Assembly (NCBI GenBank): GCA_001662655.1
Contig: KV460237.1
DNA: 64,000 nt
Direction: 5' to 3' (one strand)
Source of the DNA: Pseudogymnoascus verrucosus
Taxonomy: Eukaryota
A model generated the notes under the pieces. That model was not told where the DNA came from and searched no databases. It saw only the letters and a program-made list of their open reading frames with translations. Below are positions 7,109-62,462 of this stretch, one piece after another. A program made the translations under genes and the position numbers. Every line of letters starts with the position of its first letter. The stretch's first letter is position 1.

Positions 7109-8027
7109 GACAGCTCAGATGCAATGATTTTTATATTGCAATGAACACTTTCGCATATAGCGGGCAGACACTCTATATAGTACAGAGACAGGCCCTTGCC
7201 TCAAGAAATTGGAAATATAAAAGTTTAGTTTTCATATATGCATATATGCAACTCACTCGTGACTCGTACCTCATACGAAAAGCAACCGGAGTTACACGGG
7301 AGGACCCCTATGACCTCACCCGGTTTGTTTCCTTGGCCTTTGCCTCCTGCATTCGGAGTTTGATATCCTCCGGTGCTTAATATTTTTAAGTAAAGTTTGT
7401 AGTAATTTAGTGCATGTGAGAGGGGAGAATGAATCGAGTCGGAGCTCTAGGATTCCGCCTCTTACAAATATGAGAATCTAGAGGCGACTCACAGTGTTAT
7501 AACTTCGTATTTGCCTGGCGGCATCTTCGGAGCGTGATGATATGAGATTTTACGACCCACAAACCTGACCTTATGATACAAAACAAGTTTATATCCTCCA
7601 TAATAACCCATAAAAGAAGCATACAAGAAATACTCGATAAGCTTACAATCCCCCTCCATTCTCGGAGAATTTTAAAAAGTGTCGACAGGGCCAAAAAATA
7701 CCTCGGTACTTTCCTAACCCCAATGATCGTCACAGCTCCAAACAGCTTCCCGCCAGCACACCTTATCTAATCCGCAAGGCTGAAACTAACCTCCAGGCGC
7801 GTCAACCTCCCTCCATCCCACCATCATCCAGTCACCCACATGCAAATCCACCCCCAAGGTGCCCAACACCACTCGGCCGACACGATATTCACACTCTCTC
7901 CGCCGACATCGCCATCCCATCTTGACGCCCAATCCTCCCAACCCGTTCTCCCTCGAGCTTTACAGCCATCAATAGAGCGCCCATCACCCACAACCATCCC
8001 GCAACCACCCGCGCCGTCGACCCCACC

Positions 8028-8872
8028 ATGGCCCCCCTCCGCCGCTACCTCCGCATAACCCCCTCCTCCGTCCTCGAAGTGCGCATCTACCCGTCCCCTC
8101 CCGGCCCGTGGCTGCTCTCGACGCGCTCGCTGCTGACGCGCGTGTTGGCTGCGGTGAGGCCGTTGATCTTGCCGAAGTTGAGGGAGGAGAATGAGAGGGT
8201 CAAGGCGAGGGGGAGGGGGAGGGGGGTGAAGGATGTTGTTTCTGGTGGTGAGTGGGGTTTCTTTTTATGGGAATGGGGATGTTGTGAGGTAGTTGTTGGG
8301 TATGGATAGCTAATGGGTGCGCTATAGATGGTTTCGAAGTCTCGGTCTTCCTCACGGAGACGAGTACAAGGCATACAGTCCTCAAGAGGCGGAAGATCTT
8401 CCGGGAACCAGAACGAAAAGAGGATACGAACCCCGATGCCCCCGCCCCTCTACTGAGAGAGGAAGACGGCGACGACGACGTAGTGATCCAAGACGTCCCC
8501 CCCGAAACTGAATCCTCAAACCAACCCCCACCAACCCGCCGCTCCAAACGCACACGCCCGACCGAAGACACAGATACCCTCTTCGTCGCCGACTCCGACG
8601 CTTCCATCTCCTCCGCCTCAGACTCCGATGCTGGTGCCCCGCCGGCCAAGCGCGCGCGCTCAGCGGCACCACTGGGGGGAGCGGAGGAAGAGGAGCAGGA
8701 CGAGAAGAAGATGGCTATGCGGAGTGAGTATGACGGATACGGGATTTATGGACGGGTGTTGTGCTTGATTGTTACGAAGACGGCGGTTAAGGATGTGGCG
8801 GGGATGGGAGGGAGGGAGGTGATGGAGGAGTGGATTGCTTCGACGCAGAATCCGGCGGGGGAAGCTACTTGA
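8028..8872 (+). CDS. Conserved fungal hypothetical protein (2 exons)
   Basis: MAPLRRYLRITPSSVLEVRIY...LPKLREE is spliced through a GTGAGT..CTAAT..TAG intron (~8248-8327) to DGFEVSVFL...YDGYGIYGRVLCLIV...MEEWIASTQ. Confidence 0.7.
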
Positions 8873-11800
8873 AGAGGGGGATATGGTTAAGACAGAAATA
8901 TTGTTGTATGGGAGATGCGGCGGGTGATTATTGGGAGTCGCCGGGCATCTAACTTCGCCTGTTGTGTCTGGGAACTGCTGGCGCCTAGACATTCCACCAC
9001 ATGCTGCAAAGGCCTAACGGTGCCGCTACACAGACAGGCAGGTCTCATCCTGCACGCGAGACATCAATGTTCCACGGCCCCTTTGCGCCGTCGACTCCCG
9101 TCACGCATCAAACAGGTCTTCTGGCGAACGGGCAACTTCCATAACAGGGCTGTGGCCGAATTGATAGACGCCCTGGGGTGTTCGCTGGGGCCAAGCTGGT
9201 CGGGGAGGTTGGGATGACTTGCGAGTATCTGGTTGCTGCTGGATGGCGGACCTATGCAGAGGACGACTGGTCTGGTCAAAAGAGCGTTTGACCCATGGAG
9301 AAGGGAAGATGAAGTCCTGAGGAGGGGATAGAGGTTGGTTTGAGTAGGTATCCTGCATATAACCGCCGCAGTGTTACATTCTTGTGTGTAACTATAGAAC
9401 ACAATGCAAGAGCATTGAAGTAATCGTAATCCCAGCTATATACTCGTATCACCTTCTTATTTTGTTGCCTGACATGTAACGGATGACTGGCGACAAACGG
9501 AGATTCCCATAGTTACCGTAAGGTTGAGTCTGTTGCCATTGGGAATTTCAACCTCCGTCAAATGGACATCTAGGAAGCTCCTCATGACTAGCCATCACAT
9601 CAATCCCAACGAAGCTCATCGCGACGCGACTCATTACCTCCCCGCTATCTTACATCAGTGCAGTATCCTCGAATATCCTCGAATATCCTTGAGTAACAAG
9701 CAGACTTCACAGCGTAAGCGGCACGACGCGTACCAATCCTACATGGATACTTCACAAATCCTCGTTTGAAGCAGCCCAACCCAACCTACCCAAACCTCCC
9801 AACATAACCAACACCACCCGGCCCTCCCGCACCTCCATGGAGAAGCAATCACCAAGTGCGGGGAGGATGTCTCAGTTCCTACCCCACAGTCTCAACAACG
9901 CAGCGCAGGCCATGCCATCAACTACCGTCCTGCACCGCTCGTCACCACATCACCACATCCAACATGCAGCTGCACCGCGCGAGTCATGCTTCACGCAGTA
10001 CCCCAGACGCATGGGAAGGTGCTTGTTCAGCCCCTGGCTATAACGCGGCGATCGCGGTCGGTCTGCAAGCTGTGCTGTGCTGTGCTGCACGAGGGAGCTC
10101 TTTCAATCAGTGCTCCTGCAGGCTGTACCTTGGAGGTTGGGGGACAAACAGGCCACTTCTGATGCGGTGATGAACCGATATAGAGAGGTGCATGAGGTGT
10201 GCATTGCCGGGTCGGTCCAAAGTATGGGGTACTTACGGAGCTGAGCTATGCTGTACTGTACAGTACCTTCATGGCTCCTTCTGTGTCAGCATCGATGAAA
10301 CCTGGGTGCTGCTGTGCTGGAACAAGAAAGTCCTATAATAACAGCGACCTATATTGGACATGGACCACGGCACTTCATGGCTTAGCAAGAACTAGAAGGA
10401 GGGTAAACAAAGACTCAGCCCCGCTGACACCGACGACAAGGCAGTGACAAGTCGGAGATAATCAGTGACGACACCGCCCCAACTCCCCTCCGCCGCGTGG
10501 CACCAGGATCAGCACCTCGACCCAATCAGCCGGACACGACCAGGGCGCTGGGTGGGTGTGGATATGGGGAGATTTTGTTCGGATGAGACCTGCTGCAGGA
10601 TAGGGTCGTATCGGGCAATACCTGCCCCGGCCTCTCTCACCACTCAACCATTCTTAAATGACTACATACATGCTGCCACGGCACGGTGATGATGGCCTGT
10701 TGGGATTGATATTGCCACCTTACTGTACTTCGTACCTTGATTTTGGGGGATCGTCAGGTGCCTGGTATGCCTGTGCGACGTGGGATTTGAGGTGGGATTG
10801 TGATATGCGCAGGGGAGGAGGAGGAGTCACTTTCTCTCTTCAACGGGACAGGCACAGGCACAGGGGGAAAGGGGATCATGTCCTAGGCAGGCACGGTATA
10901 TTGCCAATGCTAATACCAAAAGTGAAAATTTCCGGACCAATGCGCAACACCAACACCATTCCCGGACGCCAAGGGAGGCAAACGAAACAACCTGAAATCT
11001 TCGATGACGAGCTCCTCCAAGTCTGTCCATCACATGACGCCCTCTCAAACACCCTAGATTTCGTATCCATATGGAGCCAATCTGAAGATCCATCCTCCAA
11101 GCTACTCTCCATGGAGCCAAGAAGCACAAGGGCAGATGAAAATGAATCCCATCTTCGCAATTACCAATCCCAACTAAGCACGCCAAACCCACCGCTAAAC
11201 CCACGCGAAACCCACCACCGCTAACCTGCCAACTAACTAAACTCCCTAACGGCCACCACTCCCGCGCGTCCCGCCCTTCTCGAAGGAAAATAAAAAGGGG
11301 AAGGAAGGGAAAAAGAGGAAAATCGTGAGCGCGATGTGGGGGTCCAAACCCCACTACTCTATCACTTTGTTTTGCGTAGCGCGCCAATAATTCACCCTCG
11401 GTGCGGGAGATTAGAGAGTGGATTTTCTCCTTCTTCTTCTTCTTCTCCTCGGTATTGCACGTGGGGGTTACGGACAGGCGGGTGTGTCGGGTGAGTTCGG
11501 TGTCTGAGGCTATGGGAAAGGACCGACAGACAGACAGTCTGGATGAGACGTGGCCTGTTGTGTGTGGTCTCCTTTCGCATTCGCTTTCGTGTTTGTCTCC
11601 CCAAGGCAAGACCGGCCGAGACAAGGCAAAGGCAGGGCGGGCGATCTCAAGGACGTACGGGGGATACACAGTAAATTAACCCAACAAACCCTACCTTAGA
11701 GCAGCCTCGTCGGCGCCACGGCACCGAAAGGAGACTTAAAATTCGCAGCCTCGTTGCCCGGCTGCCTGTCGGCCGAACTGTCGGGTCAGCGAAACGTGGG

Positions 11801-14534
11801 TTGCTGAATCGTACTTTTGGGGGCGAGCGGTGTACATTACATCCTTAGTTGTATGTACAAACTCACAGGATACACCAAGTGCCAACAGAAAGTACGATTT
11901 CGCGGCTACGGCGGTGAGCCAAAACGACACTCAGACGAACCACTCAGTTCGTTCGTGCCACATAAACTCCAATCCCAAACCCCCTCACCCCTGCTGTGGC
12001 ACTACAGTAACCCACCACTCCGGTCGGTGGCCGTTGCAGGGACTTTTTTCATTTTCACCTCTGTTCGATAAATTACCTTGGCCCTACTCCATACACGAAG
12101 TAGTAATGTCCACAAGCGGAAATAAGGGAGGCGAAAAATTACGGGAAGGCTAGCGTAGAAGGGGTATGAATCAGAGAAAATCGAGCAAGAGTTGTGAGAT
12201 TAGGCGGTGGAGACGTCATTTTATGGGCTTGGACGGGCGCGCAGGGGTGGCTTAATTTTGTGAGCGGAATCAAATGTACCGCCAGGAAGTCCCGGAGGGG
12301 CGGGTGGATGGGATGAGATGAAGGATGGCGATGGATAGGCAATGGTGATGGTGACGATGATTACTGTGTCCGGTACTCAATCCAATATCCCCTTGTCCCG
12401 CGTCCTTACTCCTTGCCCCTTGTCGCGGAGGAGGGCGAGTTTGAGTAGCGGAATCCGAGGAACTAAGGAGGCATTCGCTGACGAACGGCGCGGCGAGGGG
12501 ATGAGGTGAGACGAGGCTGTATTTGCGCCTGTTTCGCATTGGGAGGAGCCGGAAATAGACACGGTAGTCTTATTACTCGTCGTACTGAGTAAGCCAAGCT
12601 ACTCACCGATGAACACGATGAGCCCCATCCATGCCGATATTACACTTCCCCACTACTGACCGAGCGGTGCGAGGTCACCGCCATACTTTGTACGCCCCGA
12701 ACACAAAGGGTTCTGTCTAATAGAAGGGTAGCACCGAAAATAGCTTGCCCAGCCTCGCATCTCCGGTAGGTGAGGCAGGGGCATTTCCTTTCATTAGAAG
12801 ATTGGAAGTACTGTTGTACGAAGTATGTACTCTCACAGCGCGCGGCAGGGGTAAATTGGCACGACGGGGGGGAGAACAGAGTTGTAGCGTGACCCCCTTT
12901 GTCGGGACTGACAGTGACGTGGGTTGTGGGCTGGCAAGAGACAAGGTGACATAAGGGAGGACGGGGGCGTTCATGGAGACACTTTGCTGGAATGGGGACA
13001 GAGATCAGACAGGAGAGAGTCTCAAAGGGGAGTTGAGATTCATAGGGGACCTTCATAGGGGATGAATTCGGAAAGAAAGAAGGAAAGGAGAGACGCAGGG
13101 GAACGGTGAATGCCGTGTCTTCCATCGCGCCTTCACCCCATCTCATTCTCCTCGTCTCCGTTCCGTCCCACCCCTTTCCTTCACCGACAAGATGCAGGAG
13201 GCAGGAGAAGGAGTAATCAACTCAGCAATCATCTAATCACCTCGAATCATCTCGGCGCCCACTCACTCACTCACCCCGCACCCCTACCTACACACCACAT
13301 TACAGCAGTTGCTAGGCTTCCGTTTGTTGAGAAAGGAACAAAAACCGCAATATCCGTGCGCCCACACAAGGCTGCAGGAGCGCACGCACAGTGACATGTC
13401 ATTTTTCATTTCATCCCTGAACTCCGCGCAATTGCACAGTTCAGCACAACCAAACCGAACTGAGCACCACAATCAAACGCACAGCACAACACAGGCATCG
13501 GCGAAGACCGCGCGCCGTCCGTGCAACAAAGAAAGGCTGGCTCTTGTCATACCAGAACGACTAGGAAGTGAGATTACAGATTACAGTGCATGCATGTACC
13601 ACGGACGCACAGGAGCTCCTTACTCAACCAGTAGTGCAAACGCAGAGAAGGCGAATCCAATCCACTGGCCTGTTTCTGTTCTGTTCTAGTTCTGTTGTAC
13701 GCGCAAACTCGCTCAACCCCGTGCCCCGCGTGTGACTCTTCTCTCACTCACCGCACTCTTGGTAGTACGGGACTGTTAGAGTCAAGTTGAGCCAGTAGTG
13801 GTTGCACACTACCACTATAGGAGCACCACACACGAATCCCAAGCCCTCTCCTCCTTCTCTCTCCTCTCCTGGATCCCCTGCATCCGATATCACGCCGCCA
13901 GTCCGCCGCATCCGTTTGCAGCAGCGCCCGCAGTCGCGTCCGCCGCGCATCCCTTGGCTTGGTAATTGTGCGGCGGGCGGGGTGGGTTGGTGGGTTTGAG
14001 TGGGTGTCCACTGTAAATCAGGTACCAGAGACACCAATTTTTCTTGAGCCCATTTTTCTCTGCGTTTGGCGGGGTTCGGGCCAGGTACGCGTGCTTTGTG
14101 GTGGGTTTTTGACAATGGGGAAGGAATACATTCGACGTTGTGGGTATTGTATGATATTTTGTCGTGTGAGAAGAGTATGGTATGCGTGTGTATGCGTGTA
14201 TGCGATGCGAGTATCCTATGCGCTTATGCTGACTTTTGATACCGTATTACATACACATACATACTATAGACGGCAAGAATGGGAGAAGCGGCATGTCCGG
14301 ATGGTAATCGGACAGCATTCACGCACAATGCCATACAAGCCACCAAACACAAAACACAAAAATACACCAAAGCCGCGCCATGCACGCTCTTTATTCTTTG
14401 TCTCCACCCTGGTACCGTCGACGACGCCATAGTATAGTATAGTACCTCCTTAACACCCCCCCCCTACGAAAATCCCTGCAGTGGACTACATACTAACATA
14501 TTACACTAGTACTAAGAAATGGGCCCCTCAACTC

Positions 14535-14564
14535 TCCCTGTAATTCCCTGTAATTCCCTGTAAT
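14535..14564. repeat. 3 x 10-bp tandem repeat TCCCTGTAAT
   Basis: Read directly from the sequence; lies ~770 bp upstream of the micro-ORF ATG at 15332. Confidence 0.85.
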
Positions 14565-15331
14565 ATCGGGACGGGGATAAGGTACAGGATTAAGGAGTAA
14601 GGAGGTAGAAAAAGTACGTACTGTATGGAGTACTTTGCCAAGTTTAGAGCACGCAAAACTACCAAAGTACTCGTATACCACTACTGCAGCGAACAAAGTA
14701 CTCATCTCCGTCGCCGGGGGTGTTTGAAGTTTTTTTTCTCTGCTCGTGGACGGTGAGCGCGGGATGGGCGGGGGGGTGGGGGGAAGGAGAGAGTGTACAG
14801 CATACAGTCCAAGAGACAAGAGAGAGGAGGGGGAGTATATCTTGAGACGCATCCCCCTTCGCGGCTTCTAGTCTTGGATCAGCTTTGAAGAGACAGACAC
14901 GACATATCAGACAAAACAGACAAGACCAGACGAGACACATAAGACATCCTAAGACACTAAAAGACAAGAAGAGACAGAGGATAAGACAAGACGACAACAA
15001 AGAACAAACCACACAGCGCCTATCAATAATCTCTAGCTGAAAAGTGAGAGTTACGTCACAAAGTGATACATTCCTCAACTACTGCCAGGTACAACCACGC
15101 GCAACAAGGGGAGACGGCAGAGAAAGGCTGAGAACTGAGACCACCACCTGGAACGAGTACAAGAAGGACCGCTCCTGCCAGTCTTCTCACATCCAGACAT
15201 TTTTTCGAACTACACGAAACAGAACATAAACAAAGGAAGCTACCGTTTGAACACCAAGTCGTTCAAACATTCCATCACTCACTCACTCCCACACTCAAAC
15301 CACAACAACCGCCACCATTTCCGCCTTAACA

Positions 15332-15415
15332 ATGCCCGCTCAACACCGCCCATCGCAACTCCCGCCCTGCCCGGGTCCCCCACCGAGTCGTCCCCTGCCG
15401 CCGCTGCCGAAGTAG
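15332..15415 (+). CDS. Candidate 27-aa proline-rich micropeptide MPAQHRPSQLPPCPGPPPSRPLPPLPK
   Basis: ATG in ACAATG context; no + strand ATG between ~14767 and 15331; exact RPLPPLP motif; sits in an otherwise gene-free 9 kb interval. Too short for the ORF track. Confidence 0.55.
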   Translation: MPAQHRPSQLPPCPGPPPSRPLPPLPK

Positions 15416-17238
15416 TCCCCCCACGACTCTCAAAACACTACCAACACAGCACAGCACAACAACGACGCGGGCACCAGAGGAGAAGCAACGGCAACACGAA
15501 CGCGGTTTCTTAAGAACTACTATCCTCGACTCGCCCGTAACAAACAACAACAACATAACAAACACCACCACCGCCGCAGCCAGACGTTGAGGCAGGACTT
15601 CTTCGACAAGGCAAATCTACTTCCTACTACTAAGGACGACAGGGCAGGGATACGACATGGATGCGGCCATGTGATCGCCCTCCCACGTCACCACCGTTCC
15701 CATCATCGCGAGGGGCGGACAGGCACCCATCCATCATCCTTCCACCACCCACGCCCACCACCACACCCAACCCATCACCCACCATGCACACATCCTTGGC
15801 GCGAAACGGCCCCGAAACTGCGCCATGGCGAGGACAAGAGGTGTAATAATAGCAAAGTAGCCTTACACCAGTCTTTTCACTCCCACTCGCCCATTCAGCT
15901 CGGCTCGGCTCAGCCCAGTCCAGACCTCGGGCGGACTTAGACACCTACCCTACCTCACTTATCGACGATTACTCAATCGGTTCGCTGACGAAGGAATGGG
16001 TTCTGACTCGTCGATTTCGCAAGTCTAGATTGTGCTTACCCCGCATTATTCCATCCGTTATCATCTATCATCCATCTATCCGCAAACTCGTGTCGTCACC
16101 ACCACGGGTAAGACGGCCGAAAACAGAACCGCCTTCTTTTCTCGTCGTCGGCAAATACAAACTATAGTATCTCAACACGACGACACGACAGAACCCCAAA
16201 CCGCTCCTTGGCGCGGCGCGCATCATTTGCGGACACACCTGCAGGAACTGCAAGGGGCGGGGCGGGGCCTGGGGACATGCGCGGTGTACTGTCGCACTAC
16301 GGCGCTGTACATGGCCGGCGTTGGCCCGCACATGATGCGTCTCGTGATGTGCGGGTCTTGGCGTTTTACTCCTCTACACTCTGCATGCAGTGCGCGGGGT
16401 TGAATTGAGCAAGCAAGCAACCGGCATCTTATTTTCGACTCTCTTATTTCCTATGGGTGTTTAATCGTTTCATTTATTTCGTTTATCACGCATATGGGCG
16501 GGTTTCTCTCTATGGCTACGACGGCAATGGGTGATGAGTGGAGTGGGGTGGGATTTATATGTATCAACAACACGCGATTTATTATCGATTATTTTTAATG
16601 GTTTTTTTGCCTTACCGCAACGGGACGATGAGGGGTCGGCGCGTACGGGATGGAGCGGATTGTCTCTTTTTTGAAACGGGATGGGGATTTTACTTGGGCT
16701 GGGCGTGGGGGGGATTGGGTTTATTACTACCCATCTTTTGTTCCCGAGGATATGTAATTTTGGGGCCTGACGGATGGGCACGGGATGGGATGGGGCTGTA
16801 TAATTAGACGAATGGGGGGCTTTTAATATAATATATCTCGCTCGGAGATGCTTTTTACTCGTATATCTGTCTTGTCCATATTGCTTATCTGGCTTGTTGG
16901 ATTATGTTTGCGTGATCATGAAAGGTACTATATTTCCATTCTCACCTTGCCATGTCTGTCTGTATGTCTGTCCTTTCTCCACTCTAGACTCGATGATGGA
17001 CGGGGCTACTGCACGTACGGACGGCTGTACTGTACATCATGCATACATGCATTCGCCGTACGTACGTACATATATATTACCTACTCTATTCTACTTTCAC
17101 CATCAGTTATCCCGCGGATAACCCATGGCATGGCGAGCGAGCGAGGCGGACACGAGTTCAAGATGTCAGGATGCATACATACCTGGCCATCCTAGAGGGT
17201 GTAATATAGACACACCTCCTGCGATGTCCGTATTACCT

Positions 17239-17298
17239 TCCTTCCCCCCTTCCTTCCCCTCTCCCTCCCCCTCTCCCTCCCCCTCTCCCTCCCCCTCT
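17239..17298. repeat. Pyrimidine-rich low-complexity tract (CCCTCT/CCCTCC units)
   Basis: Read directly from the sequence. Confidence 0.8.
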
Positions 17299-18242
17299 CG
17301 ACCCGACGACCTGAGAGTCGAGACCGATCCGCCCTATACCACCACCCCTCAGCTCCTCATGCACGCCACTATATCCAACAAACTCTTAAGCCCTTCCTCC
17401 CCCCAATATGGCAACACCCGCATCCCCCTCCTCCATGCACAGGGTTCTATGCGCGGGGTCAACAACGGCGACTATACTGTACTGTCCTATACGGTACTTA
17501 CCATACCCCGTGACTACCCTTGGAGTGCTAGACTGAATACCACGTTACCTCGTGAGTGACAGGTGCACGGGGGCCGCGGGGGTAAATGTGTTATGTTATG
17601 CTTAAACCCCAGCGGTGAGGTAAAAGCGCGCCGCTAGGACGTGTCATGCGTGGGTGATCGCGGTGAGGTGCGTGTTGGTGTGATTATGCGGTGCGGTGCG
17701 GTGTGCCGGCGGCGGGCATGATGCACTGCAGCGTTGATCGGCGGTGTGAGGCGTGGGAGGGGGGCGGTATGGGGATTCTGGTACGTAAGGTTTGTGAAAT
17801 GACTGATTTATATGGAATAGAAAACTAGGCTAGGGGTTTAAGACGAGAACTATGGGTTTGGGACTTGTGAAGGGTTTGGTATGTCCGTTTTTGAAGTGTG
17901 AGATGGAGGAGGAGTAAGTATCACTTTGGCTGTCTTGGCGGATAAATATCGGAGCGCGGGGATATAATTACCCGACATGTGTAGCAAGCTATCCACCAAG
18001 GGTAATTTTTTGAAGCCGAAAGCTCACCCAAAGACGCGATATTACGGATTGGACAGCAACGCGGGACGGAATTGTATTTTACGACGGATATAGGAAGAAG
18101 GGGGTTTACAGCGCGATTTTGTTTCGGTCTATTTGAGCATATATCCCGCACCACCGCACCGCGAACAACACGCGCCTCACCACCAACCCGCCCAACACCA
18201 CACCTCACACCTCACACCTCACACCCCCCACGCACCTCAAAA

Positions 18243-19618
18243 ATGCCCATCCTCGAACTCCATGTCCCCCCACCCCCCCTAACCTCCTTCCCCTCCCCCT
18301 CCCTCCCCACCCTCGACCCCGAATCCCTCGCCCTAACCGCCTACTTCTCCCTCGCCATCCCGCGCGGCGAATGGGTCCTCATCCCCTCTCTCCCCGGCGC
18401 GAACCCGACGGGTGTGCTGCCGGCGCTGAGGTGGGGGGAGGTATGGGTGGGGGGGTGGGGGAATGTGGTTGATTTTGTTGGGAAGATGGGGGGGGAGGGG
18501 TGGGCGCTGGGGGGTAAAGATGGGGGGGAGGGGAATGGGAAGGGGAAGCTGAGGGGGGAGGGGGAGGGGGAGAGGGGGGATGTTATTGCGTGAGTCTTTC
18601 TAGCATTCACTAATCTACTCCATCTACCTGAAGGATACAGCTAACAACCCCCCACAGATTCTCAAACTTCATCCGCACCAAAGGCCGCGCCCTCCTCGAC
18701 CTCTCCCTCTTCGCCGACCCCCAAAACTACAACACCCTCACCCGCTCCTCCCTCGCCTCCACCCTCCCCTTCCCCCTCTCCTGGCTCGAGCCCCGCCGTC
18801 TCCGCGAAGCAGCCCTAGCGCGCACCGCACACCTAGGCATCAAACTCGACACCACCGACGATGCCCACGACGCAGCATCCACCTCCACCCAGGTCCAGGG
18901 CGAGGACGTCATCCCCGTCAGCCTGCGAAAGGGTAACCCCAACGCGGCGGCGGCTAGTTTGGCTGCGGAAGGCGCGGCGACGATAAGGTTATCTGCGCTG
19001 GCTGATGAGTTTCTGGAGCCACTTGCGGAGATGAGGGGGGAGGGGAGGTGGTTTGTAGGCGGGCGCGCGACGGAGGTGGATTGTCTCGCCCTGGGGTACT
19101 TGGCTGTTATGCTTGTTGACGGGCTGCCGAGGCCGTGGTTGGCGGAGAAGGTTAAGTCCGTAAAAGGGCTTAAGGAGTGGGTTGCTGAGGTGGAGGGTGT
19201 GGCGTTTGAGGAGCTGCCGTGGGGAGAGGGGGAGGCGGGGGTGGGTGTTATAGGACGCGCTGTTACGGGGTGGGTTTGGGGCGCGCTGGGGATGGGAGGG
19301 GTAGCGAGGGAGGAGGAGAAGAAGGAGGAGGAGTTCTCGTCGCAGGGTGAGCAAGAGATTGTGGCGTATAGGGCGATGATTAGGAGGAGGGAGATGTGGG
19401 TTACGACTGGGAGCGTGGTGGTAGCTGTGGGCTTGTTCGTGGGGTTTTTGTTCCAGCAGGGGACTATTGGGGCGATTGTGCTGGGGGCGCAGGGGGCGCA
19501 GAAGCGCGCGCGTGCGAAGGCCGAGAAGGAGGTGGAGGGGGGGGGGGTTGCGGCTGCGGCGCTGTGGGAGGCTGCTGAGCCGGGGGTGGCGGAGTTGGCG
19601 GCGAAGATGAATTTTTAG
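18243..19618 (+). CDS. Metaxin/SAM37 (Tom37)-like mitochondrial outer-membrane protein
   Basis: MPILELHV...LPTLDPESLALTAYF...NPTGVLPAL N-domain; GST-C-like segment ATEVDCLALGYLAVM; C-terminal TM helix; intron 18590..18657. Confidence 0.8.
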
Positions 19619-20493
19619 GGGGGGGTATTGAGAGGCTGGGGGGGGGGATGGTGGGGATTGTATATTATGGGATGTACTGTATGTTTGGATATGTGGACGG
19701 AGCTGGGGTTCACTCACTGGTGTTTATTATGGCATGGTGTATGATGGGGTGTTTTGTGCTATTTAGAAAATGACAACCTTGCTGTTTATAGATGAAGCTG
19801 AAACAATAGAGAGCTTTCTATTTCACTATCTGTGTATCCTGAAGAAAATGATATGAAGCTAGAATAGTAATGTGCTTCTTCCATTCTCATATTTGGTTGT
19901 TCCCGTGAGACATTGTTTCACTTCTGCACCACCGTTGGAGCCGAAATACCAAAAACCTTTTCCATTTCCAGTGACTATTCATTTCTATAAACCACCTCCT
20001 TCCACTATAATCATTCATCTACTATAATTATAAAAGTCTTGTCTTGTCACAGTCGCGCAAACCCCTCACATTGCCGCGGGTATGACAGGCTTTCACAAGA
20101 AATCGCCGAAGCCCTCGGGTGTCGACACCAGCCACACTTGATCCCCCATTTACGCCACATGCTCGTCATCGCCGTCGGCCGCCCGGCCCCCACATGTCTG
20201 GTTATGGACAATTTAAAGAGGTGAGCACTTGCTCCGCATTTGGATGCGAAAGGCTGGACGACGACGACACACGATCTTCCAAACTTCCAGAGCTTCAAGA
20301 TCCTCGAGAAGCTTCAGAACCTCAAAGTCGGTTTTTGGTATAAATCCCCACAAAGCGACCAACGCTCCATTCGAAATATCCCCTAAACCCACCATCCGAA
20401 CGCTCCAGACAGACAGAGACCCCTCTACCAAGCTCCCGACAACAATGCGAACACCTCCCAAACCCGCATAACCGACCCACGCAAACCCTCACG

Positions 20494-28773: not shown

Positions 28774-31557
28774 TCAACTCCCATCATCCGCCCCGGCCCC
28801 TCCCTCCCCACCACTCTTAATCGCCGGCGCGAGACTAATCGAGATTTTCTTCCCCCCACCTCCCCCTCCTCCTCCTCCGCCGCCTCCGCCCCCACCACCA
28901 TCACGCGAGCTATTAAAGCTCTTCTTCCTCCTCAACATCGGCGCCGACCCATTCGACCCAACACTAACAACCGAACTCGACGAATTCCGCCTCTTACTCT
29001 GCTGACTCGCCAACTTCGTCAACTCATCCTCCTCATCCTCCTCCCTCCGTCTCTTCTCAGACACCCGCTCCGGCGGCGGCGGCGACGCCGATTTGCGCTC
29101 TCCTTCCTTCTCCGCGGCGGGCGGCGGCGACCCAGCTTCGCGCGAGGGTAGGACCCCAGCTAGTTCCGCATCAGTCATATCCGGTTCCTCGTCCGACGCA
29201 TAGTCGACGAGCGGTTTCGCGAGGGGCGACGCGCCATTGACCGATGCGCCGGGTGGGGACTTCGCGCCCGCGAGCTCGTCCTCGTCGTCCGAGGTGTTAA
29301 AGTACTGCTCCTCCGCGGCGTCGAGGTCGCGCACGCCCTGCCAGCGACGACCGCCACCTGGCTGCGAGCGTCCGGGTCCTTCATCCTCGGTATCGAGGAA
29401 GGAGGCGTCCATGTTACTCGCGTACCCCTGGGAGGCGTGATCGAAGCGCGAGATGAGCGCCGTGAAGGTGTCGACGTAGGTGATATCCTGGATCTTGTCG
29501 CGGTAGCGCTCGACGAGGTGGCTGACCATGATGGGGACGCCGTGGTTGCGGATGTACTCGAAGAAGTCGAGGCAGGCCGAGTTGAGGAGGTTGTTGCGCG
29601 GCATCGTGTCGAGGAGGGTGTTGAGGATTGGCTCGAGGAGGTGTTCTTGGATCATTTGCTGGTTGTAGAACTCGTCGTTTAGGCCGAGGAGGTTGCGGAA
29701 GAACTTCAGCGCGGCTGGGGGTGTGGTTAGTTATGTATTTATAACGAATGAGAAGAGTAGAACTTACTAAGCTTCAAATGCTTCTCTGGGCAGCTCAGGA
29801 GTTGAGCAATGCGCTGACCCAGGCTTTCTGCGAGGACGAAGTACTTGCTGCGGTGCTGATGTTGGCGGATGAAGAACCAGAGAATCTCAATCAGATGCTC
29901 GAATAAAGACACCTGCTGCACATTGAATGCCAGGTTCTCCTTATCCTTTAACTCCACCAGAGGGCTGAACAGCCTCTTCGCCGACTCCTCGTAGAACTTC
30001 ACCAGGAACCCCTCCTGTTGCGGGTCGACCTGTGGCCGACCCCTCCCGCCAAACTCCATGCCGAGCTTACCCATACCCTCCTGCGGCCCCTGCTGCGACC
30101 CGGGATCGAGGAGAACCTTGATCGCGTCGGCGATCTGCGCCTTGACGCCTAAATCAACCTCCACCAAGAGCAGATCGATGAGAGAGTCCGTCAGAGGCCT
30201 CTGCTTCTCGCTGATCTGTCGAAAGATCGTCTGCCTTATCATCTGCGGGTCGTGATCGATCACCGAGACCAGCACATCTGTTGCGCCGACACGGACTGCC
30301 ACGTCGCTATGGGCCAGGGCGTAGTTGATGACTGCAAGCAGGCCGTGGCTCAGGAAGTTATTATATAATGAGTTCCGTGCAGGAGGCTGGAAGTTCTTCG
30401 CGATCGCGCAGCACTGCTGGATGAACAGGACCGCATCCTTCTTGCGCTTCTCGTCCTTCTCCTCCGGCCCGAAAATGGCGAATAGATCGTTGAGGAATTG
30501 GGGGTTTCCCTGGATGTGTTGGATTATGTCGACCTGATAGTAGAAGATCAATGAGTTAAGTATGGAAAACGTCGGGTCGTCCAAAACCCTAGCTAGAGCC
30601 ACATCTTTTAGATATTGTAGTCGATATGTGTGGTGAATCTTCCTCCGGACCTGGTCATCGTCGATGCGAACAACCTCCTTGTATCGCGATTCATCGCCCA
30701 ACCACTGTCTATGGTTCGCCTTGTGACTCGGGAAGTCAGGATCGTATTCCAAAGCCCCCATCACTCCCAAAAAGACCTCGTCCGTCATGGCATACTCGAT
30801 GATATCGTTGTCGTTGAGAAGGATCAGCATCTTCACAATGTTGCACAGGCGATGCAGTTCAGGGAGGCGCTGTGCTGCCTCAGCCTCCTCGACCAGTGGC
30901 ACGAGCTTTGGGATGTATTCATCGTGGATGACAAACTTTGCCAGTGCATCGCGTCCCGCCTGGGTGTTATTCAGATGGCGCATCTCCAATTCAACCTCCT
31001 TCAAGTTGTTGATGTTTGGCACGGGCAGGTTCACCGGCGCGGCCTCGGGCGCCATGTCCTCAGATAACGCGTCGTCCGGCCCGCCATTGACCACCATCTG
31101 CTGCTGCACCATATTGATGAACTTCCAGATCGCCGTGCACCCATCCGACTCCTGGAAACTCAGCGCCATATCAACCCCATTCACCGGCTCCGTCCATATT
31201 ATCAGCGTCTCCTGCTGTTTCGCGAACCCGCCCTGCCGCGAGATCTGCGTCTCGAGAAGCAGCCTCTCCGGCCCTTCCTCAGCCTCAACAATTATACGCG
31301 GCTCGCCATCGGCATGGTCCCATGTGCTCTACACGCGGCGCAAACCAGGTCAGTAAATGCGCGAAAATCGCAAACGCGCGGCGCACGCCACCACCAAACA
31401 AGCGGGCAGCGACGCGCACGTGTCGCCGGGGAGGGTAGAATCAACTCACCGACGCGATCGCGAAGCCCGTGCCGCGGTCAAACCAGTCATTGTTGCGCAA
31501 CTCGTAGACCTTGACCCTCTTCCTCCCACTCGGCGGATTAGGCACCGCTTGTGCCAT
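28774..31557 (-). CDS. PSY2: Protein phosphatase 4 regulatory subunit 3 (Psy2/SMK-1)
   Basis: N-terminal RKRVKVYELRNNDWFDRGTGF (EVH1-like), ALSFQESDGC, GALEYDPDFP and IHHTYRLQYLKDVAL (SMK-1 domain), NNLLNSACLDFFEYIR; introns ~31329-31449 and ~29715-29767. Confidence 0.93.
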
Positions 31558-32750: not shown

Positions 32751-35700
32751 TTAAACCTGACTCTCATCCCCCTTCCCACTCGAATCATCCACACCCCTTC
32801 CGGCCCGGGAGTGCTCCAGCTTCAACTCCAGTAACTCCACGATCGCCTCGTGTCCCTTCCCCTCCGCCATCCCCAGTGCTGTTGCGCCGGAGTCGCTCTT
32901 CGCCGCAGGGTCAACATCCTTCCGATCCAAAAGCATACCCACAATCGTTTTGTATCCTCCGACTGCCGCCCACATCAGCGGCGTCTGGCCGTGAACATCC
33001 TTTGCGTCAGCTTCAATATCCTCTCGCTGCAAGAGTAGTCCCACAACTGCTTCATACCCTTTCAGTGCTGCCCACGAAAGTGATGACTGACCCCCTACCT
33101 TCTCCTTTACGTTAATGTTAACATCCTCGTGTTCTAAGAGTAGTGCCGTAATTTTCTCGTGCCCTGCCCGTGCTGCCCACAAGAGCGGCGTATGGCCGTC
33201 ATTGTCCTTTGAGTTAACATCGATGTCGTGTCGTTTGACGAGTAGCTCGACAACTGATTCGTTTCTCCCTAACGACCCCGAGAGTATTCCCCCACCTCGC
33301 GCTGCCCACGAAAGCGGTGTTTGGCCCCCTTCGTCCTTGATTTCGGCTTTAACACTCTTTCGTTCTAAGAGTAGTTTTGCAATCACTACATGCCCTCCCT
33401 GTGCTGCCCACGACAGGGGTGTCAGGCCATACTTGTCTTTCATGTCGGCTTCAACACCCTTTCGTCCCAAGAGTAGTTTCACAGTCGCTACATGCCCTAG
33501 CCGTGCTGCCCACAAGAGGGGTGTCTGACCATATCCGTCTTTCATGTCGGCTTCAACACCCCTTCGTTCCAAGAGTAGTTTCACAATCGCTCCATGCCCT
33601 ACCCGTGCTGCCCACAGGAGGGGTGTCTGGCCAAATACGTCTTTCATTTCGACTTCAACACCGTTACGTTCTAAGAGTAGTTTCACAATCGCTCCATGCC
33701 CTTCCCGTGCTGCCGACGAGAGAGCTGTCAGACCTTGTACATCCGTTACGTTGAATCTAACTGACCTATTCTTCCGTTGCATTGCGGCCGAGAGCTGCGC
33801 CTAGCTGTCCTCGTCCTTTGGGTAGTAATCATTCGTTAAGGCTGCTTTCTGCCCGATAAGTAGTTCCACGATCACCCTGCGCTTTGTCTTCGTCGCCCAC
33901 CACAGCGCCGTCTGGCCTAGGTTGTTCTTCGTCTCAGGGTTAACGTCCTCCCGCTCTAAGAGTAATTTCACAATTGTCTCGTATCCCAGCTCTGCCGCCC
34001 ACATTAGCGGTGTCTGACCCTCAGAATCTTTTGTGTTGGCTTCAACATCCTTTCGCTCTAAGAGTAGCTTCACAATCTCTTCATATCCTTCCACTGTTGC
34101 CCACGAGAGCGCTGTGTAGCCGTTTATATCCTTGGAGTTAATGTTGACGTCGTGTCGTCCTAGAAGCAGCTTCATAACAGATATGTTTCTGAGCCGCGCT
34201 GCATACAACAAGGGCGTCTGACCATTCAAGTCTTTCGAGTCAGCTGCGACATCTTCCCGGTCTATAAGCACCTTCATAGTTTCTTCATTCCGTGCTCGTG
34301 CAGCCCACCAGAATGGCGTACGATTACTATTGTCCTTGGAATCAGCATTGACGTCCGCCCGCTCTACAAGTAGTTTCACGGTTGCTTCGTTCCCTCCTTC
34401 TGCCGCACACGACAGTGGCGTCCGGCCGTGAAAGTTCCCCACGTCGACTTCAGCTACAACATCCTCATTCTCAAGGAGCAGCCTCACAATAGCTTCATGC
34501 CCTAGTTGTGCCGCCCTCGATAGCGGCGTTTGATCATGTGGGTCCGCTAAGTTGACGTTGGCTTTAACATCATCATGCTCTAGGAGCAGCTTTACTATAT
34601 TTTCGCGCCCCAATCGTGCCGCCCAAATTAGTGGCGTATTACCATGAATATCCATCGCGTTAAAGTCGATATCCTCCCGCCCTAGGAACATTTTCACAGT
34701 CGATTCGGCCCCTCCTTGTACCGCCCATAAGAATGGAGTTATTCCTTCCCTGTCCCCGATGTCAATTTCGGCGCCCTCCAGCTTCATGAGCAGTTCCGCT
34801 ACCGCCCTATGCCCTCTATCTGAGGCCCACGACAGCGGCGTCCGACCACGCTTATCCTTAGTATTGGTGTCAACTCCATCCAGCCCCAGAAGCAATTTCA
34901 CAGCTGCTTCATGCCCCCCACGCGCTGCCCATAACAACGGCGTCCGACCGTAAAGGTCCTTCGAGTTGATGTCTGCGTCCCGCTCCAGTAGTAACTCTAT
35001 TATCGCCGTGTGCCCCTCAGATGCTGCCCATGTAAGCGGCTTCCGGCCATGCCTATCCATTGCGTCGGCCGCCATGCCACCAACCCCATCTGACCCCGAC
35101 AAAAGTCCTGCTAGCAAGTACTGCAATCCGAACTTCGCTGATAGATGTACCCCCGTTGCATATTTCGGGAAGGATTGGCCATAGTTAGTGAATGTATATA
35201 CAGCTATCGACATGGTCTGGACAGCACAGGAAACCAGTTTGTTGTCCCGTAGGAAGGCAAGCGCTATCTCGGACACCTGCTCTTGTACCGTCTGTGCATG
35301 GTGGCCCCAGTATCGAGAGGCGTAATCGAGGAATGTGTAGTGCGCAATTCTTTCCTCATACTCTTTGTCCTCCTCACAGCTGCCGCTCTTAAACGGGCCA
35401 AAAGAAAGGTAGGTAAGGCATGTCGTTGTAATCTCTTGTTGAGCTGTCGGGTTCCAAGCCTCTCTGTTCTGTAAAAAGTATTCCTGGGTGGTGTAATGGA
35501 CGAGGCGAACTATGTTGCTCTCTTCATCAACTGTGACGAGACCAGCGCAGACAGAGACGATGTCTTCAACATCTAGAATGTTGTCCTCGTCGAGGTCGGT
35601 ATCATCGGGATCGACTGCCAGAGCATGGCATAGCTCCGCCGTAGTCAGGGGCCGCTGCGCATACGTGATCCAAGAAAGAACCGTCTTGGCCAGCTTGCTG

Positions 35701-37343
35701 TCATCGGGCAACTGAGCCTCTATCCTCTTTATTGCGTCGTCGTAGGCCTCCTCTAGCGCTTCCGCGCCCCTAGGAAGCATGCCCAACATAGACTGAACCT
35801 TGGCTTTGGTCCGCTTGTCCCGAAGCGAGTCTACATGGAGACGCGCAAGGAGGAACCTAAACAATTTATGAGCTGATAGGACTTTGAAACCGGGCGGGAA
35901 CCACTAACATGCCATCCACTGCCTCACCGATCTTATCTTCAACGTCTCCCTGTAGCTTCTCGTCGCGTTGCACACATTTAGGGAGCCGGTGAATCTGGCC
36001 TCTAACGTACCGCTTCACATCCGCAGGACTGGCCCGAATCTCCAGCGTCAGCGAAGACTTGAACTGGCTCATGATATCGGGGTTAGCGCGCGAGGTAAAC
36101 ATCAGTCGCACATCAAAGTCCTGTTGTAAATCGCGTAGCCTGCCCAAAAACTGACTGCGAGTGCCATCTCGATCAGCGCACTCGTCGAGAGCATCAATAA
36201 CAACATACACGGTCCAGAAACTCATCATCGTGGTTTTGAGTGTGGCAAAGATCTCCTCGAGTGAGGGTCTCGTTCCCTGGTCGTAGTGGCGCTCGTAAAG
36301 TGTGTTTGCTGCCTTTGCGGCAGAGGGCTTTGCTTGCACCAGCTGCTTGAGAATGGCTGATAGTAGAGTAGTTGTGTTCTGCTCTGACTGAGTTTTGTAG
36401 TTGCAGAATATCTGCGCCACTCCATGGAGGCCACTGTGGAGCGTATTTCCCATCTTAACTGCAAGGAGGTCGCCGAGAGCCCTGTCTGCCACCTTACGGA
36501 GGTGATCCACGGTAATTGCTGACACCATAGTCTTTCCAGCTCCAGGGATTCCAGGGCAAAACAAAGTCCGACTCGGTTCGTCAAGCCACTTGTTGAACTC
36601 GGGGGAGTCAAGAAACCATTGGCCGGTTCCAGGCTCCCTCCTGGATATAAAATCAGACTGTTGAGATGAGTAATTGGCCGATGATATCCACTCCACGAGC
36701 ACCTGGTTCTTCTTTCTGCCTTGCTCTTGCTGAACCGCATCAACACTCTCCTGAACCGCACCAACACTATCTTGTATTGCAGGTATTTGGGACCGGACAA
36801 CGGCCAGGTCAATTTTTATCTCTTCACTGTTGTCATAAATCCCGTCCAAGCCAGATTTAATTGCTTGAGATAGTTTTCTGGGAGAGTAAGTAGTCTCATC
36901 TAAACCATCTCTCACATAACTCACAAGTGGTCCATCTGTAGAGCAATCTGAATCAGGCTCTTCAACCGTTCAATCCTCAATAATATACCCGCAACCTCCT
37001 CTTCAGTAAATCTCCACCAAAGTGCATTCCCAATCTTCACCAGCCCCTTGCCGCTCACGATCTTCAGCTGCAGCTTCTCCAGCGCATGTCTGTACTGATC
37101 CAAAGGCCCATCCCGCACAGCGAGCAACGTGACTTGGCTCGTCCATGCGTCATTTGATTTCTCACAAATTTCTTCCTCTATCTGGTATCTCAAATTAAGG
37201 AGAAGGCTTGAGAGGCTTGAAGCCTCCATCGCAAAGCGCGCACGATCTTTGGGGGCGTCTTTGACATCGTTGGCGTAGTTTACCAACGTAGCTGTGACCT
37301 GCAGGATGGCAATAATGCTCGCCGTGATGCTGAGGGGATCCAT
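32751..37343 (-). CDS. Fungal NLR: HeLo-like/SesA N-terminus, NACHT, winged-helix and ankyrin repeats; in-frame TAG at 33801-33803 separates the last ~340 aa of ankyrins
   Basis: MDPLSITASIIAILQ N-terminus; Walker A GIPGAGKT; Walker B VVIDALDEC; MFLLARLH and VRLVHYTTQEYF; more than 20 GxTPLxWAA repeats; introns ~36878-36924 and ~35857-35908. Confidence 0.9.
33290..33730. repeat. Near-identical 102-bp ankyrin-coding tandem repeats (about 4 units)
   Basis: AAGAGTAGTT recurs at 33367, 33469, 33571 and 33673 (period 102) with highly similar intervening DNA. Confidence 0.9.
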
Positions 37344-41352: not shown

Positions 41353-42250
41353 GGTGAAAGAGGAGGTTTTGGGGCGAATTGAGGGTTTTGGGGGAGGTTT
41401 GGAGAGTGGATTAGGCGATTATGGGGGGGGTGGTTTTTGTGGTCGGGGGCGGGCGGACAATTAAAATTGTTCTAGAGGGATACATTGGTTTATGTATTTT
41501 TGGGGGTGCAACGGCGGAAGGGTGGGAATAATCACGGGCATCACGGAATGTACGGTTATATCTCGCTCGTAGTAGAGCATTGTAGGTAGAGATTATCTTT
41601 CCTCCATAACTATACCACTACAGAGATTATCATTCCCCCCCAAATCCATACTCCTTTTTCCTAGAGTTCCGTACAACTTACCTACAGTAACTATACGGCC
41701 ACAGCTAATCTGTCCCCCCATACTAAACCATCGGTCCTCAACTCTCCGACTGGACTCCTTCAAACCTTGGCTGGCAAGGAAACATAGCCTCACACTAGGG
41801 GCGCATTATCCAGTCAGGAACACGCGTTCTCCCGTGACATCTGGCTAGACTCGTCGCTAGGAATCCACTACTGTACCCGAGTGGCGTGGTTTGTTACATG
41901 GATTAGGAGGGATTTTGCGGCGGTGGGAGCGGGAGGGATGGTACCCCTATTAAAGAGGGAAATGAAATCGGATGCGATGGGATTCAACGTTGATAGCCGG
42001 GGTTATGGGCTATTTATTGACTTTAGAGAGAGTGAGAAGAGGACTCTATATAACGATTTTATAGTATATTTTTATAGTATAGTAAATACTTCATAGCGAT
42101 TAATTCAAACTGCTTAATATATAATTACGGTCAGTGTAAAATACAGTTATGTGCATGCAAGTTACACTATATAGCACAAATCCCAACCCTTACCTCCCCC
42201 AACCTCACCCCTCACCCCTCACCACCACCACCACACCCACCACAAACGAT

Positions 42251-61800: not shown

Positions 61801-62462
61801 GGATTTTCGGGTTATAGGACTGTTGATTGCAGCCAGGATGGAGTCGGTCGATTCGATTGCTGCGGAACCATTCCAGTATAGAAGAGGCGAGTGGATGAAG
61901 GAGACAGCCGCATCGGATTCCAACGCACTGCGCTTGGCAGGTTCTCCGAGGATACCACTAGTACCTTCATGGCGCAACAGTGTCGTGGCCCAACTCGAGA
62001 TTGGTCCCAGGAGCGCCTCTTGAATGTCGACTGCCTCGAGGAGGGTCTCCCGCTCCAAGGCCTTAATCCAGCTGCCCTGAATCCAAAGCTGCTTGATCGA
62101 GATATCTGGAATCAAACTATCTCCACCTGGAAAGGGCAGGATTGACGTCCACGCATGGCCCGAGAGATTTGGGTATTTCGAGGAGAAGGGTGGCTGGCGG
62201 AGATACAGGATCGGCAACGAAAGATATGTGCCAATTGACACCGTAACGGCGATAGTCGCAAGTGCGTGCCGTGCCATGACCATCCCGAGATGGGACATCC
62301 ATCTGTGAAGCTGGTGATCATCGTGAAGTATGGGTGGGTTCAAAGTTCTGTTTGCACGATAGTAAGAAATAGAATGCAGTCACCTAGGATGGGGAAGAGT
62401 TGGCTTTGACCAATAACATGACACACTTACCCTCGTAGAACATAAAGCAGATACCATATCAT
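58898..62462 (-). CDS. SREBP cleavage-activating protein (SCAP/Scp1)-like: sterol-sensing domain plus WD40 region, multi-exon
   Basis: Exon 1 MIWYLLYVLRG spliced (intron 62348..62430) to TLNPPIL; FIHSPLLYW; LVAADALVVSL; SSD-like TM block (LRSKIGLLVA..YPFIALVGALDN..AAFCYFAALSLVIDMLFFWSFFVAIL); WD40 segment HGHTLDVY..SIGFDHEIRVW. Confidence 0.85.

Follow-up and report, generated by a model that had tools for sequence, protein, structure and literature searches.

The arginine attenuator peptide, which is ~24 residues long and conserved across fungi, is encoded by the first-AUG uORF of arg-2/CPA1, the main ORF of which is regulated. In insects, tarsal-less/pri represents a stand-alone micropeptide gene. 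Among proline-rich SH3 ligands, the class I ligand RPLPPLP reportedly goes back to original phage-display work, and Pbs2 of Saccharomyces cerevisiae, which carries a closely similar heptamer, is a 668-aa kinase. Residues 93–99 of Pbs2, KPLPPLP, form a type I motif that is bound by the SH3 domain of Sho1, and the residues flanking this heptamer also tune the binding (PMC12505296, in excerpt). RPLPPLP itself is named the canonical class I SH3 motif (PMC10769378, in excerpt). Nrs1, a microprotein of yeast, is young and yeast-restricted (PMC11413187, in excerpt).

Here we describe a short open reading frame (sORF) of Pseudogymnoascus verrucosus, contained in a 64,000-nt stretch of contig KV460237.1 (assembly GCA_001662655.1; hereafter, the window). 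Its peptide carries a heptamer identical to the Src-family class I ligand RPLPPLP and identical, save for K/R, to the type I motif of Pbs2, which is likewise a fungal protein. Animal SH3 domains and synthetic peptides were the basis of the Src-family consensus, which indicates no particular fungal domain. Within the Pbs2 kinase the motif makes up a small part of the chain, whereas the sORF peptide is the entire gene product. The sORF resembles the arginine attenuator peptide in encoding a short conserved fungal peptide from the first AUG of a long leader, but differs from it in that no conserved main ORF follows. It is also very short, as are tarsal-less/pri and Nrs1, the transcripts of which were first deemed non-coding and the products of which bind larger proteins. 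Unlike Nrs1, however, the sORF family spans two fungal classes with almost no amino-acid change, and it has no sequence relation to Nrs1 or tarsal-less. We assign a probability of roughly 0.55 to the whole explanation developed below, in which the sORF would be a stand-alone micro-gene for a cytoplasmic polyproline-II ligand, with an SH3 domain as the best candidate partner.

The original prediction placed a 27-aa ORF at the centre of a gene desert, and the frame was present exactly as described, ending in TAG (Table 1). Its start context is AACAATGC, with A at position -3, as described earlier. The nearest + strand ATG on the 5' side lies at 14764, so that the ATG-free run, given earlier as ~565 nt, measures 568 nt; it ranks third longest among the + strand gaps in the window, in which the mean gap is 63 nt. 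The match to the class I consensus was also exact. The six-frame translation of the 64 kb contains a single RxLPPxP, at 15389, compared with 129 occurrences of [RK]xxPxxP and 1374 of PxxP.

Table 1. Positions of the sORF and of the features around it in the window.
Feature	Position	Strand	Basis or remark
TGTTTGA, one mismatch to TGTTTCA	14721..14727	+	exact element absent in the window
Leader free of ATG, C/A-rich and G/T-poor	14765..15331	+	base counts, ATG spacing
TATATC, candidate TATA element	14836..14841	+	80 nt 5' of the first RNA-type contig base
Stretch bridged by X1, X4 and X6 contigs	14921..16628	+ (predicted from the ORF and base composition)	no joint listed
sORF, 27 codons and TAG	15332..15415	+	peptide MPAQHRPSQLPPCPGPPPSRPLPPLPK
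Constrained core of 22 codons, RPSQLPPCPGPPPSRPLPPLPK	15347..15412	+	21 invariant columns in 40 sequences, all retrieved with a pattern that demands RPLPPLP
RPLPPLP, class I SH3-ligand consensus	15389..15409	+	sole RxLPPxP in the six-frame window
Trailer of ~1.2 kb	15416..16628	+	no conserved reading frame

The tract 14850–15800 has the composition A.33, C.35, G.18 and T.15, and the sORF itself is 50% C. Because of this C/A-rich composition, Pro codons are favoured in the tract, and ATG and stop codons are rare. In addition, 109 ATG ORFs of at least 27 aa, nested ORFs counted, are contained in 8800–18300. The C-rich tract and the many similar-sized ORFs of the desert would both suit an ORF that arose by chance in C-rich promoter or leader sequence, or a non-coding conserved DNA or RNA element. 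Judged within the window alone, the sORF is not beyond chance; it rises above chance because of its conservation in other genomes.

The surroundings of the sORF agreed with the claim of a 9-kb gene desert between 8872 and 18243. None of the 10 longest stop-to-stop frames scanned contained a Pfam family, a tRNA scan of the desert found none, and a search of 8000–19000 against Rfam gave four weak matches, all far below their gathering scores; the tRNA and Rfam results speak against an RNA gene in the desert. The gene starting at 18243, predicted to be metaxin-like, is a Tom37/metaxin-like gene with a GST_C domain, the second exon of which is 73–83% identical to proteins of six Pseudogymnoascus records. 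This is the next gene on the + strand, and it begins 2.8 kb from the sORF. No SH3-domain protein was found among the 49 window ORFs scanned.

Exact look-up in a 15-billion protein collection retrieved neither the 27-aa peptide nor six other small ORFs of the transcript (7/7 absent), and an exact 22-mer anchor outside the ORF (15707–15728) matched 0 loci in metagenome contigs. The metagenome contigs were searched with a codon-degenerate pattern for the last 10 residues, PSRPLPPLPK, which matched 74 loci. Complete frames were present in 50 of these; two more (L044 and L059) are interrupted by a contig end, and the remaining 22, most of them PFPKHF or PFPPLPKRR frames, are unrelated sequences. 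All of the complete loci have M at the same place and a stop 0–2 codons past K. Together with the window, they comprise 40 distinct DNA versions, 11 peptide variants of 26–30 aa and 24 unrelated flank groups, a flank group being defined as a set of loci sharing >400 nt of alignment. The common form of the peptide is M-P-A-(Q/H)-(H)-R-P-S-Q-L-P-P-C-P-G-P-P-P-S-R-P-L-P-P-L-P-K-(R-G)-stop, with TAG as the stop codon in 31 of 51 copies and TAA in 20. The N-terminal tip is variable (PAQ, PAH, PSQH, PAEH and others), as is the tail after K (nothing, RG, SG, RN, QG, KG, AH and others). Because retrieval was based on a motif or, as described below, on a profile, lineages that lost the frame are undetectable in these data.

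Across the 40 DNA versions, all 22 third codon positions of the 22-codon core vary, whereas only one of the 22 second positions and five of the 22 first positions do. The first-position changes are all synonymous Arg/Leu changes, with the exception of one S to T. For the 12 N-terminal core codons, which lie outside the search pattern, pN/pS was 0.027 (pS 0.605, pN 0.016) over the 276 pairs among 24 flank-group representatives. This dN/dS-type comparison, which had been proposed together with the prediction, thus showed a strong synonymous bias. RPLPPLP is invariant in all 40 DNA versions, an invariance that is partly built into the alignment because the retrieval pattern demands this heptamer. 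The R, S, Q, L, C and G residues of the core are as invariant as the prolines, and the Cys codon is TGC in 38 of the 40 versions and TGT in one.

The conserved segment is sharply delimited. In blastn comparisons between flank groups, the similar segment extends, in the median, from -3 to +83 relative to the ATG, and the ungapped identity per 66 nt is 0.33 before the core, 0.81 within it and 0.27 after it. In-frame residues 5' of M are unrelated from group to group. As a control, the same pattern was searched in 596 Gb of bacterial and archaeal genomes; it gave 12 matches, and the N-terminal half was present in 0 of the 12.

As judged from these codon-position patterns, selection acts at the peptide level and is strongly purifying. 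Barring a systematic artefact in the public contigs, a chance ORF, or a conserved element acting as DNA or RNA, has a negligible probability: the third positions vary and all but one of the second positions do not, similarity is bounded by the ATG on one side and by the stop on the other, the start and stop are intact in 50 of 50 complete loci, and the prokaryotic matches lack the N-terminal half. The sORF is almost certainly a real, translated gene; we infer its translation from the selection pattern, its first-AUG position and the A at -3. The original prediction named, as evidence that would speak against it, orthologous regions lacking an intact ORF with synonymous-biased substitutions. 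The outcome was the opposite, with 50 complete frames, and the predicted unannotated gene with a long leader and large gene-free flanks is upheld by the codon-position pattern, the pN/pS and the AUG-free leaders described below.

A profile built from the 40 peptides was run against 1.84 billion representative proteins, with no pattern required, and gave 39 matches at E<=1e-3. The profile alone retrieved the variants NRPLPALPKRA, QRPLPPLPTRG, SRPLPPTPKRR, RPSHLPP and RPSPLPP, including matches with an altered motif, PLPALP in a second form of Fusarium and PLPPTP in Sodiomyces. The named carriers are Fusarium venenatum, F. oxysporum, F. mangiferae, F. fujikuroi, Dactylonectria macrodidyma, Daldinia grandis, Hypoxylon sp., Sodiomyces alkalinus, Sporothrix brasiliensis, Seiridium cupressi, Colletotrichum asianum, C. 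gloeosporioides and Grosmannia clavigera. Those for which the lineage was looked up belong to three subclasses of Sordariomycetes, and the named carriers together represent six orders of this class. The window itself comes from a Leotiomycete, so that the named carriers and the window cover Sordariomycetes and Leotiomycetes. The peptide is thus near-invariant across two classes of filamentous ascomycetes, including the plant pathogens Fusarium and Colletotrichum and the tree pathogens Seiridium and Grosmannia, and the family is also found in Sporothrix, the genus of an animal pathogen, and in the genus of the bat white-nose fungus.

The records of the carriers are labelled 'hypothetical' or 'uncharacterized', apart from one 84-aa record of F. 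oxysporum labelled 'Enolase'. In nearly all of the profile matches, the peptide forms either the C-terminal end of an over-extended ORF call, which runs upstream through the stop-poor leader, or the N-terminal end of a gene model, and the sequence beyond the peptide in the gene models is unrelated from model to model. The expectation that gene finders would miss the peptide was therefore correct in the sense that it is either missed or mis-modelled, inside makeshift gene models in the carriers. An apparent gene desert in such genomes can be the regulatory territory of a 27-codon gene.

Searches with the 27-aa and 30-aa forms at E<=0.1 matched 0 Pfam families, the profile had 0 matches among PDB chain sequences of at least 20 aa, and the ESM Atlas gave no usable match to the peptide. 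The exact peptide strings were absent from 8.1 million PMC papers and 0.36 million preprints, and the locus tags of six carriers were not mentioned in the literature searched. The excerpted text of a review of hidden fungal genome elements (PMC11413187) makes no mention of SH3 or proline, and three core strings had 0 occurrences in the excerpted text of a survey of conserved fungal sORFs and its three supplements (PMC7394265). The peptide family is new to Pfam and to the literature searched. It is rare for a fungal micropeptide gene to be deeply conserved and interpretable at once.

Eleven public runs have sequence words in common with 13000–19700, and four of them (X1, X4, X6 and X11) were compared to 8000–20000; X2, X3, X5 and X7–X10, with word shares of 0.05–0.15, were left out. 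X1, X4 and X6 come from three studies, and their run type, RNA, is a guess. The X1 contigs cover 14921–15317, 15184–16220 and 16222–16628, those of X4 cover 14996–15643, 15641–16284 and 16358–16606, and those of X6 cover 15246–15554, 16003–16206 and 16300–16506. These contigs span the sORF without a splice, and show neither strand nor level. X11 covers 30 of 30 bins and looks like DNA from a related strain. The X4 and X1 contigs stop at 16606 and 16628, 22 nt apart, whereas X11 continues, which gives a weak hint of a 3' end. X1, X4 and X6 have no cover at 9617–14920 and 16629–20000, the Tom37-like gene included, which is evidence neither of silence nor of relative expression. These results weakly suggest that the sORF is transcribed, and the stretch 14921–16628 would correspond to a probably unspliced transcript of ~1.7 kb.

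The X1 contig 15184–16220 is diverged from the window, with 28 substitutions and 47 gap letters. Among the differences listed, at least 10 small indels fall within 15205–15300, none of them a multiple of three. Inside the ORF, the differences listed include two substitutions, 15340 T to A and 15343 A to G, both of them synonymous.

A leader of this kind is also seen in other lineages, where it is C/A-rich and G-poor. Of the 26 measurable loci, 23 have an ATG-free run of at least 270 nt, the exceptions being 24, 118 and 130 nt, and position -3 is A in 37 of the 40 DNA versions and G in the remaining three. The sORF would accordingly be the first AUG, in a good fungal initiation context, of an apparently unspliced mRNA of ~1.7 kb, in which an AUG-free leader of ~400 nt would be followed by the sORF and then by a non-conserved trailer of ~1.2 kb.

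In the window, the frame remains open for 174 codons past the TAG. This open frame matched one protein, P0002, from a relative; between 15661 and ~16200, P0002 is pieced together from three window frames. Because of this mosaic, indels appear to shift the frame freely downstream of the sORF, and the region is not coding-conserved; a read-through product after the TAG was thus rejected. Splicing at the stop was also rejected, since the sequences of the stop region differ between lineages and no joint was seen. In tblastx comparisons between flank groups, the 1.5 kb downstream showed no coding similarity, with only 9 short matches in two pairs. Of the 287 flank ORFs (>=90 aa), the 70 longest were scanned, and all fell short of the Pfam cut-off. 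The class of uORFs with a conserved peptide is excluded, since a conserved main ORF is absent within 1.5 kb downstream across flank groups. Because there is no conserved downstream ORF, the sORF is better read as a stand-alone micro-gene than as a uORF. On the sequences retrieved, every lineage, like the window, has this micro-gene by itself within a large intergenic space.

These downstream comparisons also bear on a possible action in cis, in which the nascent peptide, with its PPP and PP stretches, would stall the ribosome and thereby control how stable or how well translated its own transcript or a distant downstream gene is, much as the arginine attenuator peptide or eIF5A/polyamine-sensitive uORFs do. 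The translation of polyproline needs eIF5A, and a stop close to the 5' end with a 1.2-kb trailer behind it is typical of NMD substrates. The position at the first AUG after a long leader would suit such a role, as would the fact that the peptide, not the RNA, is conserved. However, no flank group has a conserved ORF within 1.5 kb downstream, the trailer RNA is not conserved between groups, which leaves nothing conserved to regulate, and in the window the next gene on the same strand lies 2.8 kb off. In addition, the C terminus and the stop vary (K-stop, KRG-stop, KSG-stop, KRN-stop, KQG-stop and KAH-stop), unlike those of termination-stall peptides, and the non-proline residues R, S, Q, L, C and G are no less fixed than the prolines. 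We therefore regard stalling in cis as distinctly unlikely.

The functional product of the micro-gene would then be the peptide, neither the RNA nor a downstream ORF. The peptide variants are basic, with a pI of 10.9–11.7, have 26–30 residues, of which 43–46% are Pro, and contain no hydrophobic segment or signal peptide in any of the 11 variants, as judged by reading. The Pro content and the lack of a hydrophobic segment suggest that the core is accessible and unfolded. The peptide fits +xPhiPxPhiP (RxLPPxP), with the basic residue N-terminal. In the ...LPKRG forms, PPLPKR also reads as class II.

The peptide is probably a proline-motif ligand acting in trans, as judged from its composition and conservation. 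It would most likely be free in the cytoplasm and dock as a polyproline-II ligand on one or two proline-recognition domains. For the partner being an SH3 domain, we regard the chances as evenly balanced. In that case RPLPPLP would bind the SH3 domain in the class I manner, and in the lineages with ...LPKRG the peptide might also bind as a class II ligand. By occupying or bridging the domain, it would compete with motif-bearing proteins.

The constraint on the core extends beyond the heptamer. It could be explained in part by the precedent of Pbs2, in which neighbouring residues matter for binding. A single SH3 core takes ~7–10 residues, and for this reason the invariant N-terminal half, RPSQLPPCPGPPP, is not explained by one SH3 domain; it suggests a second contact or a second domain.

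The same constraint, which covers all 22 residues, suggests an interface that is longer than one SH3 pocket or double, and thus bears on the possibility that the peptide is a ligand of a group II WW (PPLP), GYF, EVH1 or profilin module, or spans two modules. WW, GYF and EVH1 domains have ligand classes of their own, and PPLP also suits WW-domain ligands; the core has both PPLP and PGPPP beside RPLPPLP. The flanking Arg that sets the SH3 class I orientation is invariant, however, and the heptamer is the canonical class I motif (PMC10769378, in excerpt) and differs only by K/R from a proven fungal SH3 ligand (PMC12505296, in excerpt). A partner of one of these other kinds is therefore unlikely. 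If the peptide is a free ligand of an SH3 domain or another proline module, it would represent a natural gene whose whole product is one short linear motif, and would offer an easily tested entry point to polarity, endocytosis or MAPK signalling in fungi.

The sequences upstream of the micro-gene were compared by counting k-mers at -800 to -250 in 17 group representatives, with downstream sequence as the control. In this exploratory count over related lineages, 13 of the 17 representatives had a TATA-like box, TACATAA(GGC), on the coding strand within -222 to -351, compared with a shuffle mean of 0.18 and a maximum of 2. The element (A)TGAAACA was present at -411 to -762 in 12 of the 17, almost always reading TGTTTCA(T) along the coding strand; it was seen in 0 of 15 downstream controls, and shuffling gave a mean of 1.13 and a maximum of 5. 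The window is without the exact TACATAA heptamer and has one-mismatch versions of the two elements only, TGTTTGA at 14721–14727 and TATATC at 14836–14841.

TGTTTCA is the complement of the Ste12-type PRE TGAAACA. TGAAACA is bound by yeast Ste12 and is the pheromone response element (PMC10789715 and PMC11870069, both in excerpt), and a promoter segment with TGAAACA is bound by CcSte12 of the Sordariomycete Cytospora chrysosperma (PMC10789715, in excerpt). For STE12 of T. guizhouense, a different motif, ATTTA, has been reported, and Msb2 and Sho1 switch on the pathway to Ste12 in M. oryzae, U. maydis and F. oxysporum (PMC11870069, in excerpt).

These upstream elements raise the possibility, which we consider unlikely, that the micro-gene is a feedback decoy of the MAP-kinase pathway from Msb2/Sho1 to Ste12. 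The Ste12-type element upstream of a TATA-like box would drive the peptide when the pathway is active, and the accumulating peptide, essentially a free copy of the Pbs2-type docking motif for the Sho1 SH3 domain, would occupy that domain or another and damp or re-route the signal. Against this reading, the copy in the window has one mismatch, the k-mer counts are exploratory and the lineages related, and the STE12 motif of T. guizhouense differs. If it were true, a whole gene would exist for one short linear motif and would have remained near-unchanged since before the split of Sordariomycetes and Leotiomycetes.

A different fate of the peptide would be export. In this reading, the sORF would encode a precursor that yields a signal or antimicrobial peptide, exported or modified, with processing at KR, modification of the Cys and unconventional export. 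Proline-rich antimicrobial peptides are cationic and Pro-rich, like the sORF peptide. Many lineages end in K-R-G, which offers a dibasic site, and the Cys is nearly invariant. In addition, protein P0053 of the Dothideomycete Elsinoe fawcettii contains two similar units, RQLPPxPGPPPxRxLPP, which sit behind a signal-peptide-like segment and after EAR/EKR sites. However, P0053 matched the profile only at E=2.3e-4 and has a different architecture. The 11 variants of the peptide have no signal peptide, hydrophobic stretch or CaaX end, and KR is missing from the window and from roughly half of the loci. An exported precursor is therefore very unlikely.

Two special forms of precursor were rejected. 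A secreted, Kex2-processed repeat precursor such as P0053 does not agree with the single unit and, by reading, the lack of a hydrophobic N terminus in the 11 variants, and an a-factor-like lipopeptide pheromone would carry a CaaX box, whereas the peptide ends in K, KRG and similar tails. A CaaX-type sORF does lie nearby, at 14247–14318 on the - strand, in a different frame.

The reading frame of the proline-rich micropeptide (27 codons, window 15332-15415) stays open for 174 further codons past its TAG (window 15416-15940 (+)). The 161-aa ORF call of a relative over this region (P0002) is a mosaic of three window frames. The openness after the TAG is therefore explained by the C/A-rich composition, not by coding.

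In most flank groups (sets of metagenome loci sharing >400 nt of alignment), a TACATAA(GGC) core-promoter box precedes the sORF at a conserved position and in a conserved orientation, and the same holds for the TGTTTCA(T) element lying upstream, which is the complement of the Ste12-type PRE. In the window, only near-matches to the two elements were found, TGTTTGA at 14721-14727 and TATATC at 14836-14841. For the public sequencing run X1, two versions of the locus were observed at window 15184-15317, one near-identical to the window and the other about 93% alike, an indication that the sample contained either two alleles or more than one strain or species.

The peptide occurs in two differing forms, …PPPNRPLPALPKRA… and …PPPSRPLPPLPKQG, within one forma specialis, Fusarium oxysporum f. 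sp. albedinis (P0029 and P0060, the latter wrongly labelled 'Enolase'). The occurrence of both forms there suggests that Fusarium carries two paralogous micro-genes.

The Dothideomycete protein P0053 (Elsinoe fawcettii KAF4549943.1, 108 aa) matched the micropeptide core with E=2.3e-4. Behind a segment resembling a signal peptide it carries two units, RQLPPAPGPPPTRSLPPI and RQLPPTPGPPPSRPLPPFA, which are preceded by EAR and EKR sites. P0053 could be a secreted, Kex2-processed relative of the micropeptide core, or a convergent look-alike.

A CaaX-type ORF is present on the opposite strand, some 1 kb upstream of the micro-gene; in size and type of end it resembles lipopeptide pheromone precursors.

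Features of the window and of the related loci
Feature	Position	Strand	Remark
TACATAA(GGC) and TGTTTCA(T) elements	-222 to -762 relative to sORF ATG		L006, L008, L010, L013, L014, L017, L018, L021, L024, L025, L037, L046, L050, L060, L068 and others
23-codon ORF MLSDYHPDMPLLPFLPSIVCMCM	14247-14318	-	CaaX-like end CMCM
CCCTCT-type simple repeat	17233-17303		between micro-gene transcript and Tom37-like gene
PP4R3 phosphatase regulatory subunit	28777-31328	-	EVH1-like domain (proline-motif-binding fold)
Large NPHP3_N/NACHT-type NTPase	32754-36969	-	many ankyrin repeats
Squalene epoxidase	39733-41418	-	
Sterol-sensing-domain protein	59636-62379	-	SCAP-like
DUF2014 protein	63059-64000	-	

The CCCTCT-type repeat was left out of the read alignment as repetitive. 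The PP4R3 subunit and the NPHP3_N/NACHT-type NTPase have no evident tie to the micropeptide. The squalene epoxidase, the SCAP-like protein, and the DUF2014 protein are all encoded within 25 kb of one another, and possibly represent a grouping of sterol-related genes.
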